The notes under the pieces: generated by a model
The model's database searches: none
What the model saw: the letters and a program-made list of their open reading frames with translations, nothing else
Told to the model about the DNA's origin: nothing
In this document: piece by piece, positions 25,128 through 56,999 of the stretch
Numbering within the stretch: position 1 is the first letter of the stretch
Layout: each line of letters opens with the position of its first letter
From: an uncultured bacterium
GTDB taxonomy: Bacteria; Acidobacteriota; Thermoanaerobaculia; Multivoradales; JAHZIX01
DNA: 64,000 nt
Direction: 5' to 3'
NCBI GenBank assembly: GCA_965368975.1
Contig: CBDUPA010000003.1
Location: forward strand, 320,001 to 384,000
Position numbers and translations under genes: made by a program

Positions 25128-25493
25128 TCAGAATTCCCTGCCGTCCGAGGAGTGCTCGGGCTCGCCGTGTTGGCCCCACTCGTCGCGCGTCTCGGGCAGT
25201 AGGCGGATACCGGTCAAGTAGGCGGCACGGCCAATGATATGACCGGCGACGGGGGCCGTGAGGAGGAAAAACGTGATCACTAGCCCTGCTGTGATCGTCG
25301 TCTCTGCGTCCCGGAAGTGAGCTGCCGCGCCCAGGGCCGTGCAGGCGATGCCCAGGGTCGAGGCCTTGGTGCCGGCCTGGAGACGCAGCATCAGGTCGGG
25401 CATGCGCAGGACGCCGAGGGCCGCGATGAGCATGAAGCCGGCGCCGATCAGCAGGAGGAATGCGGCCGCGGTGGTCCAGATCAGCTCGCTCAT
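25128..25493 (-). CDS. mrpG: Na+/H+ antiporter subunit G
   Basis: LGVLRMPD...RLQAGTKASTLG and FFLLTAPVAGHIIGRAAY. Confidence 0.92.
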   Translation of the reverse strand: MSELIWTTAAAFLLLIGAGFMLIAALGVLRMPDLMLRLQAGTKASTLGIACTALGAAAHFRDAETTITAGLVITFFLLTAPVAGHIIGRAAYLTGIRLLPETRDEWGQHGEPEHSSDGREF

Positions 25494-25798
25494 GCACTCT
25501 CCTTGGGGGTCTCTCGCTGGGTGGGCCGACGGTCGGGCTGGTGACCACGCCGCTTGAGGTGGTACGCGAATGCGACCGTGGCCAGGAACCCGACCAGGCC
25601 GAGCAGCAGGGCAGGGCGCAAGTAGGGCGCCTGGTCGCTACGCACGGCGTCGACCAGGATCAGGCCGACCGTGATCACCGCGATCAGGTCGAGCGCCACG
25701 ACGCGGTCCGCGAGGGTCGGACCGAGGCTGAGACGCAGCAGGCTCAGCAACAGCGCGAGGAGTAGCAGGCCGGCTGCCAAGTCGAAGGCCCAGCTCAT
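25490..25798 (-). CDS. mrpF: Na+/H+ antiporter subunit F
   Basis: RLSLGPTLADRVVALD, three hydrophobic helices, GFLATVAFA. Confidence 0.92.
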   Translation of the reverse strand: MSWAFDLAAGLLLLALLLSLLRLSLGPTLADRVVALDLIAVITVGLILVDAVRSDQAPYLRPALLLGLVGFLATVAFAYHLKRRGHQPDRRPTQRETPKESA

Positions 25799-32462: not shown

Positions 32463-34370
32463 CTAGAGAGAGGCCGCTACGGGTGCCGCCTGCTTGTCAG
32501 CGACCGCTGCCGCTGCCGCCGGAGGCGTGAAGTACAGCTCGCCGAGGTCGCCTTCGAGCCACTCCTGGTTGCCGTCCAAGACGCCGAGGGCGGTGCGGTA
32601 CTTGAGCATGTCGTCGTTGCTCCACAGGTCGCGGAACATCTGCTTGACCTTGCGCCGGGCATTGCGGCAGAACAAGTCGGCCAGTTTCTGCGCCTGCTTG
32701 GCCTCGGCCGCGCCGGCCTTGCGCATTGCCTGTACACGGCTGACTGAAGCGGCCATGGCGAACAATTCGTCGGCAATGTCGACGATACGGAAGAGGAAAG
32801 CCTGCTTGAACTGCAGCTTGGCCTGGTGAACCATCATGCCGTGGAAGATCTGGCGTGCCAGTTTGCGGCAGCTACGGTCGACGAAGCGCAGGTGCTTGGC
32901 GTTGGGGCCGAACTCAGAAAAGCGCGGCCACAGGCCCCAGCCGATCCAGCGGCTCGGGTACCACCAGGCATAGAAAGCAGCGATGCCTGGCAGTGCCGCC
33001 AGCTTGGTGCCCATCGGCACCTTGGACTCGACCATGGCACCGGCGACCTGCAGGTGCTTGTCGACCGCCTCGCGGGCCATGAACAGACGCATGATTTCGT
33101 CCGAGCCCTCGAAGATCCGGTTGATGCGGAAGTCGCGCATCATGCGTTCGACACCGATCGGCTTGTCCCCGCGCTGCCGCAGCGACGCCTCGGTCTCGTA
33201 GCCGCGGCCGCCACGGATCTGCATCAGATCGTCGACAATGTCCCAGCCGCGCGTGGTGTTCCATAGCTTGCATGCCGCGGCTTCGAGGCGGATGTCGAAG
33301 TCACCGCTGTTGGACATGTGCGTGGTGACGCGGGCGATCGACTCCATGGCGAAGGTGGTCGCAGCCATGTCGGCGATCTTGTGCGACAGCGCCTCGTGCT
33401 TGCCCACGGGCTTGCCCCACTGCACACGCTCGTTGCTCCACTCGCGCGAAATCTTGATCGCCACCTTGGCGGCACCGACGGCGCTGTTGGGGATCGACAG
33501 GCGGCCGTCATTGAGAGTGGTGAGCGCGATTTTGAGGCCGCGGCCTTCCTTGCCGATCAAGTTCTCACGCGGCACGCGCACATTGGTGAACTGCATCTCG
33601 GCGTTGGCCAGAGCCTTCAGGCCCATGAAGTGGCAGCGGTTGAGGATCTCGACGCCTTCCCAGGCGGTCTCGACGACAAAGGCGCTGATCTTCTTGCTGC
33701 CGGGGTGCGTGGCCATGACCACCACCAGGCCGGCGATGGTGCCGTTGCTGCACCACAGCTTCTTGCCGTTGAGGATGTAGGCGTCGCCCTCGGGCGTCAG
33801 CTCGGCGGTCGTTTCCATGCGCGCCGGATCGGAGCCGACACCGTGCTCCGTGAGCGCGAAAGCGGAGATCTCACCCCCGGCACAGCGCGGCAGGTACTTC
33901 TGCTTCAGTTCTTCGGTGCCGAAGTTCTTCAGCGGCTGTGGCACGCCGATCGACTGGTGGGCGGAGAGCAGGGCGGTGAGGTTGCCGTCGTAGGTGCCCA
34001 GGAAGTGCATGACCTCCTGGTACTCGAGCTGGGAGAAGCCGAGGCCGCCGTACTTCTTCGGAATCTTCATGCCGAAGGCGCCGAGCTTGCGCAGGCCGTC
34101 AAGCAAGCCTTCCGGGTATTCGCCGGTGCTGTCAATTTCGGCCGGGTCGTACTCGCGCACGAGTTCGCGCAGGGCGTTGTAGAAGGCGGCGAACTCCGGT
34201 CGCTCGGGTGGCGAGGCAGGGTAGGGGTGCAGCAGGTCGAGTCGGAAGTTGCCCATGAAGAGTTCCTTCATGAAGCTGGGCTGCAGCCATTCCGTTTGGC
34301 GCGAGGCCTCGGCGACCGCCCTGGACTCCTCCTCGCTGACGTGACGCTCAGCCTGAGGTTTGTTGGACAT
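32463..34370 (-). CDS. Acyl-CoA dehydrogenase (long, ACAD9/VLCAD-like)
   Basis: [51 protein letters not shown] and [12 protein letters not shown]; RBS AAGGAG before ATG 34370. Confidence 0.92.
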
Positions 34371-34615
34371 GTGCTTCTCCTTGGTGATGCGTGGGACGTG
34401 TCGACGCGGTGTGCGGATCACGCTGTGAAGCCGGTGCCTCGAAATTCGGGCATTGCCGACCTTCCGGAAAGAGGTTCGCCGTGGTCACGGCAGTGGTTTC
34501 CGGTCTCCTACTATTGTAGCAGGCGAGGCCCAGAGTGTCGACGCGCCGCGGTGCGGCAATCTCAGCTGGGTTGACGCAGAGCTGAGTAGCGACGGTACTG
34601 CTTCGGTCTGCCGCG

Positions 34616-34667
34616 GTGCGGCATCCCAGTGCGGTATCCCAGTGCGGCATCCCAGGGCGGCAGCCAA
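34616..34667. repeat. 13-bp intergenic tandem repeat (3 copies plus 1 degenerate)
   Basis: GTGCGGCATCCCA / GTGCGGTATCCCA / GTGCGGCATCCCA / GGGCGGCAGCCAA in the divergent intergenic region. Confidence 0.8.
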
Positions 34668-49486: not shown

Positions 49487-51528
49487 ATCTTCGCCACCTC
49501 GACGCGTGCGTCATTGAAGCACGCTCCCTCGCCGAGATCCGCGTAGGTCGCTGGAGAGAGTGCATTCGAACTGAGGCCGTTGTGGGTGTTGTGGCTCCAG
49601 ATACCCTTGGGCAGCGCTGCGACGCCGGGGCGTAGATCTGCATTGACCTTCAGCGGGCAGCGCACCTCGCCCAGCTCGTTGTAGACGCGCACGTCATCGC
49701 CGCTGGTCAGCCCGCGGGCTGCCGCGTCGTCCGGGTGCAGCTCGACGGGAACGAGGTCTCGGTGTAGCTGGCCGAACGTGGAGCTGATGTGGGTGCGCAG
49801 GGCGGGGGAGATGAGGGCGAGGGGATAGTCCTCGGTTCCGGGATCGGCCTGGTAGTGATAGAGGCCGTGCGGAGTCTCAGCGTCGAGAGCGGGTGGCACG
49901 AGGTGGATCTTGCGGTCCGGCGTGCCTGGGAAGACATCGACGAACTGGATCGGCCGCGCTCCGCTGGGTGGGGGAGCGACGCCGCCATCTTGGATCTGCT
50001 GGCGCAGCTCATCGCCCTGGCCACTGCCGTCGAGGATGCGGTCGATGATCGAGTCGGCATCGCTGGCGTCTTCGGGGCGGTCGAGATCGAGACGCTGCGT
50101 GAGGTCTGCGAAGACTTCGAGGTTGGAGCGTGCTTCGCCGACCGGAGGGATCACGGGCTGCCCGTCTTGCAGGGCGTAGGCGCCGTAGGCACGCTTGAGT
50201 TCACGATGCTCCAAGAAGGTGGTGGCGGGCAGCAGCAAGTCGGCGTAGCGGGCGGTATCGGTCATCACCTGCTCGAAGACGATGGTGAATAGATCCTTGC
50301 GTTCCAGCCCCTGGCGCACCTGGACCTGCTCGGGCAGCGTCGACAGCGGATTGGCATTGTAGACGAAGAGCAGGTGCACCGGTGGGTCGGCCTCGAGGAG
50401 ATCACGACCGAGGCGGTTCATGTTGAGGATGCGCGTGGCCGGCGGCGCATCGTCGACCGCCTTGCCGAGATGCTTCCAGACGCCGCTGTTGCTCATTGTG
50501 AGGCCGCCAGCGCGTCGACCGAACTTGCCAGCGACGGCGGGCAGAGCGAGGATGGCGGCGGTGGAGGAGCCGCCGTTGCGGTTGCGCTCCTGGCCGTAAC
50601 CGCAGCGCAGAACTGCCGGGTGAGTCTCAGCATACATGTGAGCGAAGCGTTCGAGGTCGGCGGCCGGGATGCCGCTGACCTGGGCGGCTCGCTCGAGCGT
50701 CCAGGGGGCGGCGCGGTGGCGCAGTTCGTCGCTGCCGGTCGTGTGCTGCGCCAGGAAGTCGAGATCGGCACGATCGTTTTCGAACAGCCAGCGAATGAGG
50801 CTGAGCGCTACAGGTAGATCGGTACCGGGACGCGGCGCCAGATGCAGGTCGGCTTTCTTGGCCAGCGGAGTGCGGCGCGGATCGATGACCACCAGCTGGG
50901 CACCCGCTGCCTGGGCGCGCTGAACCACCGGTACCAGATGGATACCCGAGGCCGATGGGTTGGCGCCCCAGATGACGATCAGCTTGGCATGCTCATAGTC
51001 CTCGAACGCGACGCCAGCGAGCTTGCCGTAGAGGCCGCTCAGCGCCGTCGCGGTTGGGGCGGCACAGACCGCTCGGCGCAGCTGCGAAGCACCGAGTCGC
51101 CGGAACAGGCGGGCATCGGTGGAATCTTGGCTCAGCAGGCCGTTGGAGCCGCCGTAGCAGAAGGGGAGGATCGCCTCAGCGCCATAGGCTTCGGCGACCG
51201 CGCGCAGTTTGCCGGCGGCCAGGTCGAGCGCTTCGTCCCACGACAGCCGTTCAAAACGACCCTCGCCCTTGCGCCCGACACGGCGCAGCGGGTGCAGAAG
51301 GCGGTGTTCGCCATAGACATGCCGGTCGAAGTTGCGAACCTTGGCGCAGATGAAGCCGTCGGTGAGCGGGTTCCGGTGGTTGCCTTCCAGCCGCACCACC
51401 CGCCCGTCGTGCACCGTGACGTCGAGACTGCAGGTGTCGGGACAGTCCATCGGGCAGACGCTCGGGTGAGTTTCCGCGGGAGTCTCGGCGGCAGGGATGG
51501 GACGGGGCGTGGGTTCGAGCGGCGGCAT
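49483..51528 (-). CDS. Molybdopterin-dependent oxidoreductase with N-terminal 4Fe-4S
   Basis: CPMDCPDTC...GFICAK, LSWDEAL, WGANP, IDPRRT, TDTARYADLLLPATTFLE and HPDDAAARG; no signal peptide. Confidence 0.92.
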   Translation of the reverse strand: MPPLEPTPRPIPAAETPAETHPSVCPMDCPDTCSLDVTVHDGRVVRLEGNHRNPLTDGFICAKVRNFDRHVYGEHRLLHPLRRVGRKGEGRFERLSWDEALDLAAGKLRAVAEAYGAEAILPFCYGGSNGLLSQDSTDARLFRRLGASQLRRAVCAAPTATALSGLYGKLAGVAFEDYEHAKLIVIWGANPSASGIHLVPVVQRAQAAGAQLVVIDPRRTPLAKKADLHLAPRPGTDLPVALSLIRWLFENDRADLDFLAQHTTGSDELRHRAAPWTLERAAQVSGIPAADLERFAHMYAETHPAVLRCGYGQERNRNGGSSTAAILALPAVAGKFGRRAGGLTMSNSGVWKHLGKAVDDAPPATRILNMNRLGRDLLEADPPVHLLFVYNANPLSTLPEQVQVRQGLERKDLFTIVFEQVMTDTARYADLLLPATTFLEHRELKRAYGAYALQDGQPVIPPVGEARSNLEVFADLTQRLDLDRPEDASDADSIIDRILDGSGQGDELRQQIQDGGVAPPPSGARPIQFVDVFPGTPDRKIHLVPPALDAETPHGLYHYQADPGTEDYPLALISPALRTHISSTFGQLHRDLVPVELHPDDAAARGLTSGDDVRVYNELGEVRCPLKVNADLRPGVAALPKGIWSHNTHNGLSSNALSPATYADLGEGACFNDARVEVAKI

Positions 51529-51710
51529 GGTCAGGCTCCCAAGATTGGTTCGCGGCCAGCCTACCGCTCCAGCGTCTGCAGTTCCAGTACTCGGCGCGAG
51601 GTTTTACGTCTCACTCGTGGCGTAGTGCACTTTGAAACGGGGGCCGTCGTGGAAGCGGGGCGACCTCCAACTGCGGGCGACCCAGGCAGCGCCAGTGCTT
51701 CGCCGGAACA

Positions 51711-51750
51711 AGAAAAGGGCGCGGTGCCCCTACGGACGCCGCGCCTTTCT
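51711..51750 (-). terminator. Probable intrinsic terminator downstream of the lipoprotein gene
   Basis: AGAAAAGGGCGCGGTG...CGCCGCGCCTTTCT inverted repeat; the A run gives a U tail on the minus strand. Confidence 0.6.
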
Positions 51751-51813
51751 CCAACAGCTCTGCTGGCCGAGATTCGGCTCATGGGTTGAGCCTCCGGTCA
51801 GCTGGCGGTGAAA

Positions 51814-52125
51814 TCAGTTCTCGGTCGGCGGAGGAGTGACCTCTTCTGTGGCCTCTTCTGCGGCCTCTTCGACTGCCTCGGTCGCATCGTCCACCGCATC
51901 TTCGACTGCCTCAGCGGCGTCATCGAGCGCTTCCTCGGTCGCCTCGGCCGCATCTTCGACCGCATCGCCCGCCGCTTCGGCAGCGTCTTCGACCGCCTCG
52001 GTCGCGTTGTCGACGGCTTCTTCGACCTGTTCGCCCGCGGTCTTCTCTTCGCTCTGACAGCCAGTCAGGCCCACGAAGCTGAACAACAATGCGACGGTCA
52101 CCATCGAGAGGATGTACTTGTACAT
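51814..52125 (-). CDS. Small acidic Ala/Glu/Asp-repeat lipoprotein
   Basis: RBS AAGGAG; MYKY plus hydrophobic stretch and lipobox LTGC; mature part is repeats of (E/D)(E/D)A(A/T)EAxxxA(V/L). Confidence 0.8.
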   Translation of the reverse strand: MYKYILSMVTVALLFSFVGLTGCQSEEKTAGEQVEEAVDNATEAVEDAAEAAGDAVEDAAEATEEALDDAAEAVEDAVDDATEAVEEAAEEATEEVTPPPTEN

Positions 52126-52215
52126 GGTTTTCTCCTTGTTTTGCAGGGTGAGTTGGCGCATGCTAGCAGGTTTCCCTGGGACGCGGGAACTGGGTAACGG
52201 GCGGTCCAGGGAAGA

Positions 52216-52887
52216 TTATTGGCAGTCTGCATCCGTGGCGGCGAGGGTGGCGATGGCGACCCACTGCTGGTCCCAGTTGCCGAGCGGCGGCAAACGGTCG
52301 CGTGATGGATGTAGACGGTGGAAGCTCGTGATGCCGGCTCGCTTGCCGCTGCTGCGGCCGTGGAACAGGTCGTAGGTCAGGTTGCCTTCGACCTCGTAGA
52401 CGTCAGTCACTACGCCAACGTGCTGGATGCCGCCTGGATTCTTCAGCAGGTCGTCGAGGTCGAAGCGGCGGTAGGTCTTGCCCTGCGTGCCGTAGAACAT
52501 CACGGCTCCCGGCCGGATGTGTTCTTGCTCGGCGACGGCATCGTGAATCAGGGTGAGGCGGCCCTGCTGGTGGTACCAGTAGGCCAGGTCTCGGGTGCTG
52601 CGGTAGGGATCGACGGGCGGCCGGTCGACGCCAGGGCAGCTCTGTTCGAGGGCGCCGAGGAAACGGTGGAAGATGCCCGAGCAATCTGTCAGCTCGGCGC
52701 TGTTGTAGAGCCATCGCCGAGCTTCGATGTCGAGCGCCACACGTCGAACCTGGGTGCACAGCGAGCTACTTCCACAGCTGGTGTCGAAGCTGGTGCTCTG
52801 CGACGTGGCGTCCGAGTCGATCCCCAGGACGTGGACGATCACCAGGAGACTCACGAGAGCGGCGATGAGAAGGCGGAACCTGTACAT
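52216..52887 (-). CDS. Secreted NlpC/P60-family peptidase-like protein
   Basis: Signal peptide; catalytic-type DCSG; PGAVMFY; HVGVV; LFHG. Confidence 0.75.
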   Translation of the reverse strand: MYRFRLLIAALVSLLVIVHVLGIDSDATSQSTSFDTSCGSSSLCTQVRRVALDIEARRWLYNSAELTDCSGIFHRFLGALEQSCPGVDRPPVDPYRSTRDLAYWYHQQGRLTLIHDAVAEQEHIRPGAVMFYGTQGKTYRRFDLDDLLKNPGGIQHVGVVTDVYEVEGNLTYDLFHGRSSGKRAGITSFHRLHPSRDRLPPLGNWDQQWVAIATLAATDADCQ

Positions 52888-53061
52888 GTAGTACCCAACA
52901 GTCTATCGCGTTCGTTCCTGGACGTGCGATGAGGGAATGAGCTGAACTCTCAGGATGTTCCTGCGTACATCAATGCCGAATCGCCCCCTACGCTCACGGT
53001 AGCAGTTACCGAGAGTGCCGGAGGCACCTACATCTCCATCTCCAATTCTGAGGAGGAAGCT

Positions 53062-53207
53062 ATGAAGAAGCAACCAAGAAGAAGCTGACGTTGCACCGTG
53101 AGACCCTGAACGATCTGCAGATCCGTCAGGCTCGGGGTGGCGTCCAGGACTTCCAGTTCACCGAGCCGCCGATTTCTGGCTGTGCCGGCACGGAACTCTG
53201 CTACTAG
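53062..53207 (+). pseudogene. Lanthipeptide/RiPP-type precursor peptide with a 1-nt frameshift near codon 4 (pseudogene or sequencing error)
   Basis: RBS AGGAGG then ATG AAG AAG CA|ACC AAG AAG AAG CTG...; adding one base gives MKKQTKKKLTLHRETLNDLQIRQARGG-VQDFQFTEPPISGCAGTELCY*. Not in the ORF track. Confidence 0.7.
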
Positions 53208-53218
53208 AACGAACCTCC

Positions 53219-53260
53219 GCAACCGCGGTCCCTGGTGTCGCGAGCCGGGGCTGCGGTTGT
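53219..53260. terminator. Hairpin between the convergent precursor peptide and icmF
   Basis: GCAACCGCGGTCCCTGG...CCGGGGCTGCGGTTGT imperfect long inverted repeat. Confidence 0.55.
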
Positions 53261-53288
53261 TGCTTGTCGAGTCGGCTTTCCCGTCGCT

Positions 53289-56200
53289 TCACAAGTTGCG
53301 GCGATACTCGCCGCCGACCTCGTACAAGGCTCCCGTGATCTGACCCAGAGAGCAGCTGTTCACCGCCTCCATCAGCGCTGCGAAGAGGTTGCTGCCGCTC
53401 AAGGCCGCGTCCTGCAGCCGCTGCAACGCCGCTGGTGCCTTGTCTGCATGACGCGTCTGGAAATCCTCCAGGCGACGGATGCACTCCTTCTTCTCTTCGT
53501 CGGTCGCCCGCGACAGTTCAATCTCGCCTTGTTCGGACGCTTCTTCCGTCGTCTTGGGCAAGAAGGTGTTGACGCCGATCACGGGTAGCTCGCCACTGTG
53601 CTTCAGGTGCTCGTACTTCATCGAGTCTTCCTGGATGGTGCCGCGCTGGTACTGCAGCTCCATGGCGCCCAGCACCCCGCCGCGCTCGGTGAGTCGATCG
53701 AACTCGGCCAGCACGGCTTCCTCGACCAGGTCGGTGAGTTCTTCGATCACGAAGCTGCCCTGCGTAGCGTTCTCGCAGAAGGTCAGGCCGAATTCTTTGT
53801 TGATGATCAGCTGGATCGCCATGGCGCGACGAACCGACTCTTCCGTCGGCGTCGTGATCGCCTCGTCATAGGCATTGGTGTGCAGGCTCTGGGCGTTGTC
53901 GAAGGTGGCGAGCAGGGCCTGCAAGGTGGTGCGGATGTCGTTGAACTGAATCTCCATGGCGTGCAGACTGCGACCACTGGTTTGGATGTGGTACTTCAGT
54001 TTCTGGGCACGTTCGGAAGCGCCGTAGAGGCGATCCAGGGCTACCGCCCAGACGCGCCGGGCGACCCTGCCGATAACGCTGTACTCGGTGTCCATGCCGT
54101 TGGAGAAGAAGAAGCTGAGATTGGGTGCGAAGCGGTCGACATCCATGCCCCGGGAGCGGTAGTACTCGACGTAGGTGAAACCGTTGGCCAGCGTGTAAGC
54201 GAGCTGATGGATCGGGTTCGCGCCAGCCTCCGCGATGTGGTAGCCGCTGATCGAGACGCTGTAGAAGTTGCGGACGTTGTGGTCGATGAAGTACGCCTGC
54301 ACGTCGCCCATCATGCGCAGCGCGAACTCGGTGGAGAAGATGCAGGTGTTCTGCCCCTGGTCTTCCTTCAAGATGTCGGCCTGGACGGTGCCGCGGACTC
54401 TCGCCAGCGTCTCGCCCTGGATGCGTGCGTATTCCGCGTCGCTGAGCAGGGCGCGGACGTCGTCCCAAGTGGCGCCGCGCAGGGCATCGGGCTGCAGCTC
54501 TTCGGCCTCGCTGATGTCCAGCCGGCCCTCGGCGCGCAGGAAACGGCGGCACTGCTGGCGCACGGCGGTATTGAAGAAGAAGGCCAAGATGGTGGGGGCC
54601 GGGCCGTTGATGGTCATGCTCACCGAGGTGGTGGGGTCGCACAGGTCGAAGCCGGCGTACAGCCGCTCGGCCTCCTCGACGGTGAACACCGCGACGCCGC
54701 TCTCGCCGATCTTGCCGTAGATGTCGGGCCGCAGGTGCGGGTCCTCACCGTAGAGCGTGATCGAATCGAAGGCGGTCGACAAGCGCGCCGCCGGCTGGCC
54801 GTTGGCGAGCAGGTGGAAGCGGCGGTTGGTGCGCTCGGACGGCCCCTCTCCGGCGAACATGCGCGTCGGGTCTTCGGCCTGACGCTTGAACGGGAAGACT
54901 CCACTGGTAAAGGGATACTCTCCTGGCACGTTCTCGGTCAGACGCCAGTACAGGCGATCGCCCCAGCCGGAGAAGCGTGGGCGCGCGACCTTGGGGATGC
55001 GACTGTCGGAAAGCGTCGTGCGGTAGTTGGCGACCCGGACTTCCTTGCCGCGCACGTGGTACACGAATTCGTCGCCCCGGTACTGCGCGTCCCAGGCGTC
55101 CCAACCGCGCAGCAACTCGAGGCAGCGCGGTTCCAGCGCCTGCAATTGGGTGTTGTAGGCGTCCATCAAGTCGGCTGCCCCTGTCTTACCGGCGTTCGTC
55201 GCGGCCTGAATCTCGTTGGCGGAGAAGCCGGTCAGCACCGATCGTCCCGTACCAGCCGCCAGCGAGCTGGTGCCATCGCCGAGCAGAAAGGCGATAGAGC
55301 GTTCGAGGGCGTCCAGGTCGGCAGCGACTTCGGCTTGCGCTCGCGCCCACGTCCGGTACTGGCGGCAGGCATCTGAGATCTCGCTCAGATAGCGTTCCCG
55401 GCCAGCTGGGATGATGTGCTGACTCGTGTCGGTGACGCGCCCCGTCCCGGCCTCGTAGTGTGACGTCCAGCCAAGGTCGAAGCGTTCGTTCAAGGCGCCC
55501 ACCAGGTGTCCATAGAGCGCGTTGACCCCGCTGTCGTTGAAGTGCGCGGCGCTGGTGCCGAAGACCGGCAGCGACTCCAACGGCTGGCTCCACAGCTCGC
55601 GGTTGCGCTGGACTTGCTTGCGCACCTGGCGCAAGGCGTCCTCGCTGCCGCGGCGGGTGAACTTGTTGATCGCCACGAAGTCGGCGTAGTCGAGCATCTC
55701 GATCTTTTCCAGCTGCGTCGGAGCGCCGAACTCGCTGGTCATGACGTAGAGAGACAGGTCCGAGACTTCGATGATCGCATTGTCGCCCTGCCCGATACCG
55801 GCGGTCTCGACGAAGACGAGGTCGAAGTCGTCCTGCGCGACGACATCGACTACGGGCGCCAGCGCCGCCGAGACCTCGCCGCGGGCTCCGCGCGTGGCGA
55901 GCGAGCGCATGTAGACGCGGGGGTTCTTGAGACTGTTGAAACGGATGCGATCGCCAAGCAGCGCACCGCCGGTGCGTCGGCGTGTTGGATCGACGCAGAC
56001 GATGGCGACTTTCTTGTCCGGGAAATCGTGGACGAAGCGACGTACCAGCTCGTCCGTCAAGCTGCTCTTGCCAGCGCCGCCGGTACCGGTGAGGCCGATG
56101 ATCGGTGCGCGCTTTCCCTTGGCTGTACCTTCAGCGGTGGCAGACGCGGCAGTACCGTTTTCAGCTGCATACTCCGCCGCGGTGACGCGCCGGGCCAGCG

Positions 56201-56729
56201 GCAGGAAGGTCTGTGGACCGCCGTTGACCGACACGGGCAGAGCTGCCAGGTCGTAGTCGCAGCCTTCGAGCACCATGTTGATCATGCCCTGCAGGCCCAT
56301 CTGCCGACCGTCGTCGGGCGAGAAGACCCGATCGATGCCGCTCGCGTGCAGTTGCTCGATCTCGCGCGGTACGATCACGCCCCCGCCTCCGCCGAAGATT
56401 TTGACGTGCTGGGCGCCACATTCGTCGAGCATCTGACGCATGTAGGTGAAGTACTCCATGTGCCCGCCCTGGTAACTGGTCAGCGCGATGCCCTGTGCGT
56501 CTTCTTGCAGCGCAGCCTGCACGACTTCCTCTACTGAGCGGTTGTGCCCCAGGTGGATGACCTCGGCACCGCTGGCCTGCAAGATACGGCGCATGATGTT
56601 GATCGAGGCGTCGTGGCCGTCGAACAGCGCGGCCGAAGTGATGATCCGCACTGGGTTGCGCGGCTGGTAGGGTTCGGTGGAGGAGGGTTGACGGGCAGCT
56701 TGCGCAGTGGGAGAGCTGGTCGTGGTCAT
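53289..56729 (-). CDS. icmF: Fused isobutyryl-CoA mutase / MeaB-like GTPase IcmF
   Basis: B12-binding LFDGHDASINIMRR; P-loop GLTGTGGAGKSS; VETAGIGQ; mutase RMFAG, RLSTAFDS, RGTVQADILKE, SISGYHIAEAGANP and QTSGRSL. Confidence 0.93.
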   Translation of the reverse strand: MTTTSSPTAQAARQPSSTEPYQPRNPVRIITSAALFDGHDASINIMRRILQASGAEVIHLGHNRSVEEVVQAALQEDAQGIALTSYQGGHMEYFTYMRQMLDECGAQHVKIFGGGGGVIVPREIEQLHASGIDRVFSPDDGRQMGLQGMINMVLEGCDYDLAALPVSVNGGPQTFLPLARRVTAAEYAAENGTAASATAEGTAKGKRAPIIGLTGTGGAGKSSLTDELVRRFVHDFPDKKVAIVCVDPTRRRTGGALLGDRIRFNSLKNPRVYMRSLATRGARGEVSAALAPVVDVVAQDDFDLVFVETAGIGQGDNAIIEVSDLSLYVMTSEFGAPTQLEKIEMLDYADFVAINKFTRRGSEDALRQVRKQVQRNRELWSQPLESLPVFGTSAAHFNDSGVNALYGHLVGALNERFDLGWTSHYEAGTGRVTDTSQHIIPAGRERYLSEISDACRQYRTWARAQAEVAADLDALERSIAFLLGDGTSSLAAGTGRSVLTGFSANEIQAATNAGKTGAADLMDAYNTQLQALEPRCLELLRGWDAWDAQYRGDEFVYHVRGKEVRVANYRTTLSDSRIPKVARPRFSGWGDRLYWRLTENVPGEYPFTSGVFPFKRQAEDPTRMFAGEGPSERTNRRFHLLANGQPAARLSTAFDSITLYGEDPHLRPDIYGKIGESGVAVFTVEEAERLYAGFDLCDPTTSVSMTINGPAPTILAFFFNTAVRQQCRRFLRAEGRLDISEAEELQPDALRGATWDDVRALLSDAEYARIQGETLARVRGTVQADILKEDQGQNTCIFSTEFALRMMGDVQAYFIDHNVRNFYSVSISGYHIAEAGANPIHQLAYTLANGFTYVEYYRSRGMDVDRFAPNLSFFFSNGMDTEYSVIGRVARRVWAVALDRLYGASERAQKLKYHIQTSGRSLHAMEIQFNDIRTTLQALLATFDNAQSLHTNAYDEAITTPTEESVRRAMAIQLIINKEFGLTFCENATQGSFVIEELTDLVEEAVLAEFDRLTERGGVLGAMELQYQRGTIQEDSMKYEHLKHSGELPVIGVNTFLPKTTEEASEQGEIELSRATDEEKKECIRRLEDFQTRHADKAPAALQRLQDAALSGSNLFAALMEAVNSCSLGQITGALYEVGGEYRRNL

Positions 56730-56884
56730 GGAGTTTCGGGCCTCGAATGGTGGGTTCGGTCGCGATGACCGCGAAGGTTCAACCGGGACCCCTCCGGCCG
56801 TCGTGGCAGAGAGTTCGCAGCGGGTCGGTTTCTTGTGAGTTCGAGCAATCGCTGCCCGGGACTGGAATGCCGGGCGGGAACGCC

Positions 56885-56890
56885 TATAAT
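56885..56890 (+). promoter_or_regulatory. Putative sigma70 -10 element (TATAAT) in the divergent icmF/regulator intergenic region
   Basis: Perfect TATAAT in a GC-rich background, 110 bp upstream of ATG 57000; overlapping TATTAT on the minus strand; no clear -35. Confidence 0.45.
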
Positions 56891-56999
56891 ATACGGCGGT
56901 TCGCAAGGCAGAGATCGAAGGCGGAAATCGAGTCTGAACTCCAGCCGCTGACGAACCCCAATCTATCGAGTTCTACGCACCGAGTTCCAAGGGGACCCT

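Follow-up and report, generated by a model that had tools for sequence, protein, structure and literature searches.

A peptide gene split across two frames

In the 64,000-nucleotide stretch of DNA analysed here, which we call the window, a strong Shine-Dalgarno sequence and an ATG codon open a frame of only eight codons, and an overlapping frame with the appearance of a lanthipeptide precursor carries no start codon to match. This arrangement raises the question of whether the locus is a working gene, a gene that has lost its frame or a frame that never was a gene. We argue below that it is probably a class I lanthipeptide-type precursor gene (lanA) that has decayed, its inactivation being genuine and recent. 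The features of the locus are as follows.

53051..53056, forward strand: Shine-Dalgarno sequence AGGAGG, with a 5-nt spacer to the ATG at 53062 (read from the sequence)
53062..53088, forward strand: original start and first codons (ATG AAG AAG CAA), now an eight-codon dead-end frame (read from the sequence)
53071..53076, forward strand: frame-break site in codons 4-5, CAACCA (DNA comparison with six paralogue starts)
53073..53141, forward strand: leader in the shifted frame, TKKKLTLHRETLNDLQIRQARGG, with an LxLxRx5L motif and a Gly-Gly end (translation and HMMs)
53142..53207, forward strand: core VQDFQFTEPPISGCAGTELCY, 21 aa, and TAG stop (translation)
53219..53260, forward strand: 17-bp GC-rich hairpin with a weak U-tail (fold -33.3 kcal/mol, z -2.65)

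The frame that begins at ATG 53062 (frame A) encodes MKKQPRRS and is terminated by the TGA at 53086-53088. Frame B, shifted by -1 relative to the ATG frame, runs without a stop from 53052 until the TAG at 53205-53207 and translates as GGSYEEATKKKLTLHRETLNDLQIRQARGGVQDFQFTEPPISGCAGTELCY. It contains a leader of the form LxLx(K/R)x5L (LTLHRETLNDL) followed by a Gly-Gly leader end (...QARGG, with V as the next residue). The sole ATG, GTG or TTG codon in frame B is the TTG at 53091, which lies within the conserved leader motif, and no start codon stands in frame with the complete leader and core; a CTG at 53085 is also in frame B. GC3 is 0.80 in frame B as against 0.60 and 0.42 in the remaining two frames. 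An earlier note on this DNA had placed the AGGAGG, the ATG and the downstream hairpin at these same coordinates, and had described an ATG frame that closes after eight codons and a shifted frame with no start upstream of the leader motif; each of these readings agrees with ours.

No sigma-70-like promoter was found in 52700-53500. The hairpin at 53219-53260, matched by an equally good fold in 3 of 200 shuffles and also listed in a shorter version at 53243-53258, falls between the peptide gene and the 3' end (53289) of the convergent icmF (53289-56906, minus strand). It is terminator-like and may be used by the peptide gene or by icmF.

On its other side, the peptide gene has directly upstream of it a gene on the minus strand (52216-52887) for a 223-aa protein with a signal-like N-terminus and no Pfam family, which was not found in five same-family genomes. 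A 115-aa protein encoded at 51814-52161 (minus strand) has a hydrophobic N-terminus, then a lipobox-like LTGC and a long repetitive Ala/Glu/Asp-rich tail (EEAVDNATEAVEDAAEAAGDAVEDAAE...); its only Pfam match is a weak one to the chlorosome protein CsmC.

A family of 55 precursor-like frames in the genome

The genome scanned comprises 7,125,974 bp in 59 contigs, with 65.4% GC. A six-frame scan, as the earlier note had proposed in order to count sibling precursors, revealed many small frames of the form MKK..(K/R)LxLx(R/K)ETLxxL..GG followed by a Cys-rich tail. A leader HMM built from 42 of the genome frames, with the window copy left out, was then searched against all 133,041 six-frame segments. 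This search returned 56 frames at E<0.2, of which 55 were kept as family members, distributed over 37 loci (loci outside the window are given by contig number and position). The frame that was dropped, C37:27363-27857 (E 0.15), lies inside a 165-aa frame and has neither an MKK start nor the GG-plus-core layout. The window's frame B scores 28.7 bits on the family HMM (E 5.2e-6 against the 133,041 segments), and the strict motif KKLxL[..][RK]ET[LIV]xxL occurs five times in the six-frame translation, every time in a family member. Judged by these sequences, the window locus is one of 55 paralogous lanA-type precursors, a broken copy of the LxLxKx5L-GG family with 54 siblings.

The siblings also define what a complete member looks like. 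An in-frame ATG is present in 53 of the 55 members and a GTG in one, which leaves the window copy as the sole member without a start, and a 4-mer Shine-Dalgarno core lies 4-18 nt ahead of the start in all but one (54/55). The sibling with the GTG start (C7:256563-256724, plus strand) begins six bases past an AGGAGG and has an overlapping ATG-TGA ahead of it in another frame. No 7- or 8-mer was clearly enriched within 200 nt upstream of the 55 starts.

The assignment of the leader to the class I lanthipeptide type, which the earlier note had made, is supported by the NCBIfam model NF038153 (lant_leader_L1a). This model matches 21 genome copies at E<=0.01 and places 16 siblings above its 22-bit cut-off; the leader motif also agrees with that of Walker et al. 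(2020). When five siblings were scored singly, four passed (41.3, 27.5, 24.4 and 23.7 bits) and one scored 21.3 bits. Frame B of the window reaches 15.2 bits (E 0.018) against the same 22-bit cut-off in an alignment confined to model positions 8-25 of 32, its first residues lying in the other frame. A Pfam search of the precursor peptides matched no family.

Within the family, cores have a median of 28 aa, 3 Cys and 6 Ser/Thr, with an overall composition of 11.6% Cys and 19.4% Ser+Thr, and both residue types are present in 54 of the 55 members. The window core likewise holds both, with two Cys, two Thr and one Ser in its 21 residues (Thr7, Ser12, Cys14, Thr17 and Cys20), and is small yet within the family range. 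Beyond its own genome, the locus found no counterpart in the collections searched. The DNA of 52900-53300 is absent from 40 same-order relatives, a set that includes no same-genus genome, and its only other match is a paralogue leader, C8:156034-156081, at 80% over 50 nt. A homologous-protein search with the 44-aa frame-B peptide gave no candidate, and the 51-aa read-through frame had no tblastn-confirmed relative among metagenome contigs or genome contigs.

Modification enzymes and exporters outside the window

A Pfam search of 45 window ORFs detected no lanthipeptide enzyme, radical SAM enzyme, C39 peptidase or ABC exporter, and the families that were matched are housekeeping or unrelated ones (DnaE, IcmF, ValRS, Mrp antiporter and others). 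The ORF set consists of 47 greedy ORFs minus 25493-25798 and 34351-34650 (both minus strand), with 51808-52194 (plus strand) replaced by 51817-52161 (minus strand). The earlier note had likewise seen no modification enzyme or transporter in the window and had pointed to the rest of the genome. Indeed, LanB, LanC and three C39 exporters are present there, all of them unlinked to the window locus.

The central enzyme cluster, on contig 13, has the order lanB-lanA-lanA-lanC-lanC (C13:45177-51790). Its LanB is a protein of 1159 aa that matches Lant_dehydr_N at 558 bits and Lant_dehydr_C at 223 bits, and directly 3' of lanB lie two precursors with the LxLx(K/R)x5L-GG leader, followed by LanC genes of 424 and 437 aa; the cluster contains no transporter. 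Two further stand-alone LanC genes are found directly 3' of single precursors, at C1:561790 and C13:186580. Because LanC and precursor stand there with no LanB nearby, these two loci appear already to depend on a dehydratase supplied in trans. The three exporters of the C39-peptidase type are encoded at C13:97342, C13:122306 and C8:193952, and no stops interrupt the matched regions of the LanB, LanC and C39 genes.

For the intact copies, these genes suggest a route in which the full-length LanB of contig 13, single in the genome, would dehydrate Ser and Thr residues, one of the four stand-alone LanC cyclases would close the rings, and a C39-peptidase ABC exporter would cut past the Gly-Gly and export the peptide. 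The earlier note had proposed a dispersed multi-precursor system modified in trans; the dispersal and the enzymes are now found, and the trans modification is what we infer. The note had also looked to sibling leaders, RiPP enzymes and homologues of the restored peptide as the ground on which its proposal would stand or fall. The first two are present in this genome, and homologues of the core were not found in the searches described above.

Clustering of the genes that neighbour the 37 loci brought up no additional partner enzyme. MacB/FtsX permeases occur at three loci and LanC at three, and neither a radical SAM enzyme nor any other enzyme family recurs beside the precursors at the 37 loci. 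A BLAST-linked set of multidomain proteins, Ser/Thr kinase-TPR, FGE-sulfatase and TIR/SEFIR proteins among them, is represented at 11 of the 37 loci, counted within 6 kb. We rejected this set as a linked partner, as it has 132 members genome-wide and the random expectation is 7.9 +/- 2.5 loci (P 0.15).

Co-occurrence of leader and LanB in other genomes

The association of this leader type with LanB extends to other organisms. The nearest relatives found for the contig 13 LanB come from a Thermoanaerobaculia MAG (55%), an Acidobacteria MAG (44%), a Saprospiraceae MAG (36%), Pedobacter (30%) and an Acidobacteriota MAG (29%). In three of these five foreign loci a precursor with the same leader adjoins the LanB homologue, and one of the remaining two is cut by a contig end.

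Among 40 same-order relatives, NF038153 matches are found in seven genomes (G030 with 17, G011 with 11, G007 with 7, G039 with 6, G020 with 2, and G010 and G038 with one each); five same-family genomes have none. A Lant_dehydr_C match above 200 bits is present in exactly the same seven of the 40 genomes, and the 33 without such a LanB have no NF038153 match, a co-occurrence to be read with the kinship of these genomes in mind, since they are not independent and represent five genera in three families besides the window's own. These strong matches lie in frames of at least 1126 aa, except that the best match of G030 is in a 770-aa frame. Ten further relatives have only weaker PF14028 matches (<=145 bits), mostly in short frames and a few in frames of at least 700 aa, and no leader matches. 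Across the 40 relatives, then, the leader tracks the matches above 200 bits and does not track the weaker ones (<=145 bits, mostly in split-type frames). We further note that the leader matches of G030, G011 and G039 (17, 11 and 6) are spread across many contigs, with one full-length LanB in each genome.

Position and nature of the frame break

Aligned to six paralogue starts, the window copy is seen to have lost a net 1 nt, or gained 2 nt, within codons 4-5. The Shine-Dalgarno sequence plus ATGAAGAAGCAA recurs exactly where the paralogue C8:156081 begins, and the first 12 bases of the gene are identical. This placement is further supported by the family HMM: a bridged reading made of the first four codons (ATG...CAA), an unknown residue X and the shifted frame scores 34.0 bits, compared with 29.6 bits for frame B alone and 17.0 bits for a product starting at TTG 53091. 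The break that the earlier note had located at CAACC is therefore upheld. A net loss of one nucleotide in codon 5 would part the strong Shine-Dalgarno sequence and ATG from the leader and core; as a consequence, ribosomes starting at ATG 53062 would halt after eight codons and the leader-core frame would be left without a proper start. The break site contains no homopolymer of three or more and no short repeat. Over 53040-53110 as a whole there is no mono- or dinucleotide repeat, the sole run of three being the CCC at 53104, away from the break.

How the break arose is the point on which the explanations divide. Everything else at the locus is still undamaged, namely the ribosome-binding site, the ATG, the leader motif, the GG site, the open core frame and the hairpin, and a locus with a single lesion is equally compatible with a sequencing error in an intact gene and with a pseudogene of very recent origin. 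If the organism itself carries a whole gene and the base was lost through an error of sequencing or assembly, the product would be a 47-48-residue precursor from ATG 53062. The bridged reading would then fit the family at its 34.0 bits, and the spacing from Met to LxL would be 7-8 residues, like that of the siblings. We nevertheless regard such an error as unlikely and favour genuine recent inactivation, because the site is not error-prone sequence: the lesion lies outside the homopolymers and repeats where assembly indels concentrate. A further reason is that no comparable break was noticed in the other 54 copies, in the LanB, LanC and C39 genes or in the scanned window ORFs, where an unsystematic look at the Pfam matches made no split gene apparent. 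The assembly itself looks to be of high quality (completeness 99.32%, contamination 0.09%). In the one sequencing run listed for the organism, a sediment metagenome in which it is thinly represented (share 0.06), two contigs match 51167-51504 and 51696-51906 of the window letter for letter, and 52206-53210 is uncovered. Genuine inactivation is also favoured by a second sibling that is damaged in a different way, by a stop codon, from which we take it that real decay does occur in this precursor family. This sibling, at C11:198921-199160 (plus strand), is one of four precursors in a tandem group; its leader is intact, a stop follows after four core residues (..GGSVNK and then the stop), and the frame past the premature stop reads WCLGFLPLVSHFCLDVK, 17 residues with two Cys.

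A broken frame might still be expressed. Both termination-reinitiation and -1 slippage at rare codons are known in bacteria, and the local sequence offers an opening for each. The stop of the short ORF overlaps the CTG at 53085 (CTGA) and lies 3 nt ahead of TTG 53091, so that reinitiation at either codon after the eight-codon ORF would yield a product with a shortened leader; alternatively, ribosomes could slip by -1 at the AGA AGA pair of the ATG frame, AGA being a rare codon (2 of 254 Arg codons across three long genes of the window). Against this, none of the seven in-register heptamers of 53062-53088 qualifies as a slippery X XXY YYZ sequence, a TTG start loses the LxL part of the leader, with a fall in the score to 17.0 bits, and none of the 54 other siblings is arranged in this way. 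We consider continued expression improbable. The idea that the locus is a chance open frame and never was a gene might draw on the shortness of the frame, a core without a homologue and a score under the NF038153 cut-off, but it is very hard to reconcile with an E-value of 5.2e-6 on the family HMM over all six-frame segments, with a strict motif that was found only five times and always in family members, with a Shine-Dalgarno sequence and ATGAAGAAGCAA exactly as in a paralogue start, and with the GC3 of 0.80. Hardest of all to credit is a phase-variable contingency gene switched by slipped-strand mispairing, which the earlier note had listed among its possibilities. In its favour stands only the single-base frame change that parts the start from the gene body, but apart from the CCC at 53104 there is no repeat at 53040-53110 on which mispairing could act, and the AAG triplets that are present would shift the sequence by 3 nt and keep the frame. 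This part of the note's reading thus finds no support at the lesion.

Comparison with known systems

Walker et al. (2020; PMC7268733), in the excerpts on which we draw, describe for Bacteroidetes class I lanthipeptide precursors in which an LxLxKx5L motif takes the place of FxLD, many of them Gly-Gly-ended and often accompanied by a C39 protease. The window copy has the same motif (LTLHRETLNDL, that is LxLxRx5L), the Gly-Gly end and a core with Cys, Ser and Thr, and its genome likewise encodes a full-length LanB, LanC and C39 peptidase-transporters. Several differences set it apart: the window copy is frame-broken and startless and sits in a housekeeping neighbourhood far from the enzymes, its host belongs to the Acidobacteriota and not to the Bacteroidota, Arg replaces Lys in most copies of this genome, and the C39 exporter lies outside the lanB cluster.

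The prochlorosin system of marine cyanobacteria (ProcA/ProcM) is a class II system with a single LanM and Nif11-type leaders. At the level of the genes, the window family resembles it in combining a shared leader with unrelated cores and in having many precursors distant from the enzyme, with 55 precursors at 37 loci and LanB at one. Unlike in prochlorosins, LanB and LanC are separate in the window genome, and its precursors carry LxLxKx5L-type leaders. Many prochlorosin precursors sit far from their LanM, according to the same excerpts of Walker et al. (2020; PMC7268733).

A third point of comparison is TIGR04149 (GG_sam_targ_CFB), which describes radical-SAM RiPP precursors of Bacteroidota with a similar N-terminal leader and a GG end. 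Two of the five siblings match this model weakly (15.3 and 16.6 bits, under the 25-bit cut-off) and the window peptide does not match it; unlike in those systems, no radical SAM enzyme recurs beside the precursors of the window genome.

Taken alone, the window locus matters little, as it is most likely a dead copy, for whose core no relatives were found. Its interest lies in the family around it, for the precursors are very numerous and gene callers miss them, whether intact or damaged, and dozens of unlinked substrates may depend on one LanB, beyond Bacteroidota and beyond class II systems. We tentatively suggest that the precursors may form a library evolving by birth and death, of which the broken copy would record one 'death'. 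In this view the 55 scattered precursors, with their hypervariable cores, would be served in trans by one full-length LanB, four stand-alone LanC cyclases and unlinked C39 exporters, and the whole would parallel, with class I enzymes, the combinatorial ProcM/prochlorosin system. If this in-trans model holds, 50-odd natural substrates would be at hand for gauging the tolerance of one class I enzyme set, and from the two damaged copies one could begin to see how such a library turns over. Scattered copies of this kind would go uncounted by surveys of the design given in the excerpts of Walker et al. (2020; PMC7268733), because the search range there covers only seven genes either side of LanC. 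In the literature consulted, largely as abstracts, we found no description of scattered class I precursors in Acidobacteria.

Other lanthipeptide-type genes in the genome

The genome carries additional genes related to lanthipeptide synthesis. A split LanB is encoded at C12:117344-120874. At C9:118735-128334 (minus strand), several Lant_dehydr_N-like domains are found in three frames of 878, 944 and 1698 aa none of which matches Lant_dehydr_C; they form a LanB-like cluster of a different sort, distant from any LxLx(K/R)x5L-GG precursor. LanC-like domains also occur in four long frames, at C18:2723-3760 (1191 aa), C1:735552-736664 (787 aa), C22:90299-91078 (906 aa) and C41:7097-8029 (839 aa), which are probably class II-IV lanthipeptide synthetases. 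To judge by these frames, the class I set is accompanied in this genome by several other lanthipeptide systems. Finally, two small frames at C13:106754-109148, located between the C39 exporter genes C13:97342 and C13:122306, have a different, acidic double-glycine leader (..EL.E..LE.VAGG) and may represent a separate GG-leader peptide system.
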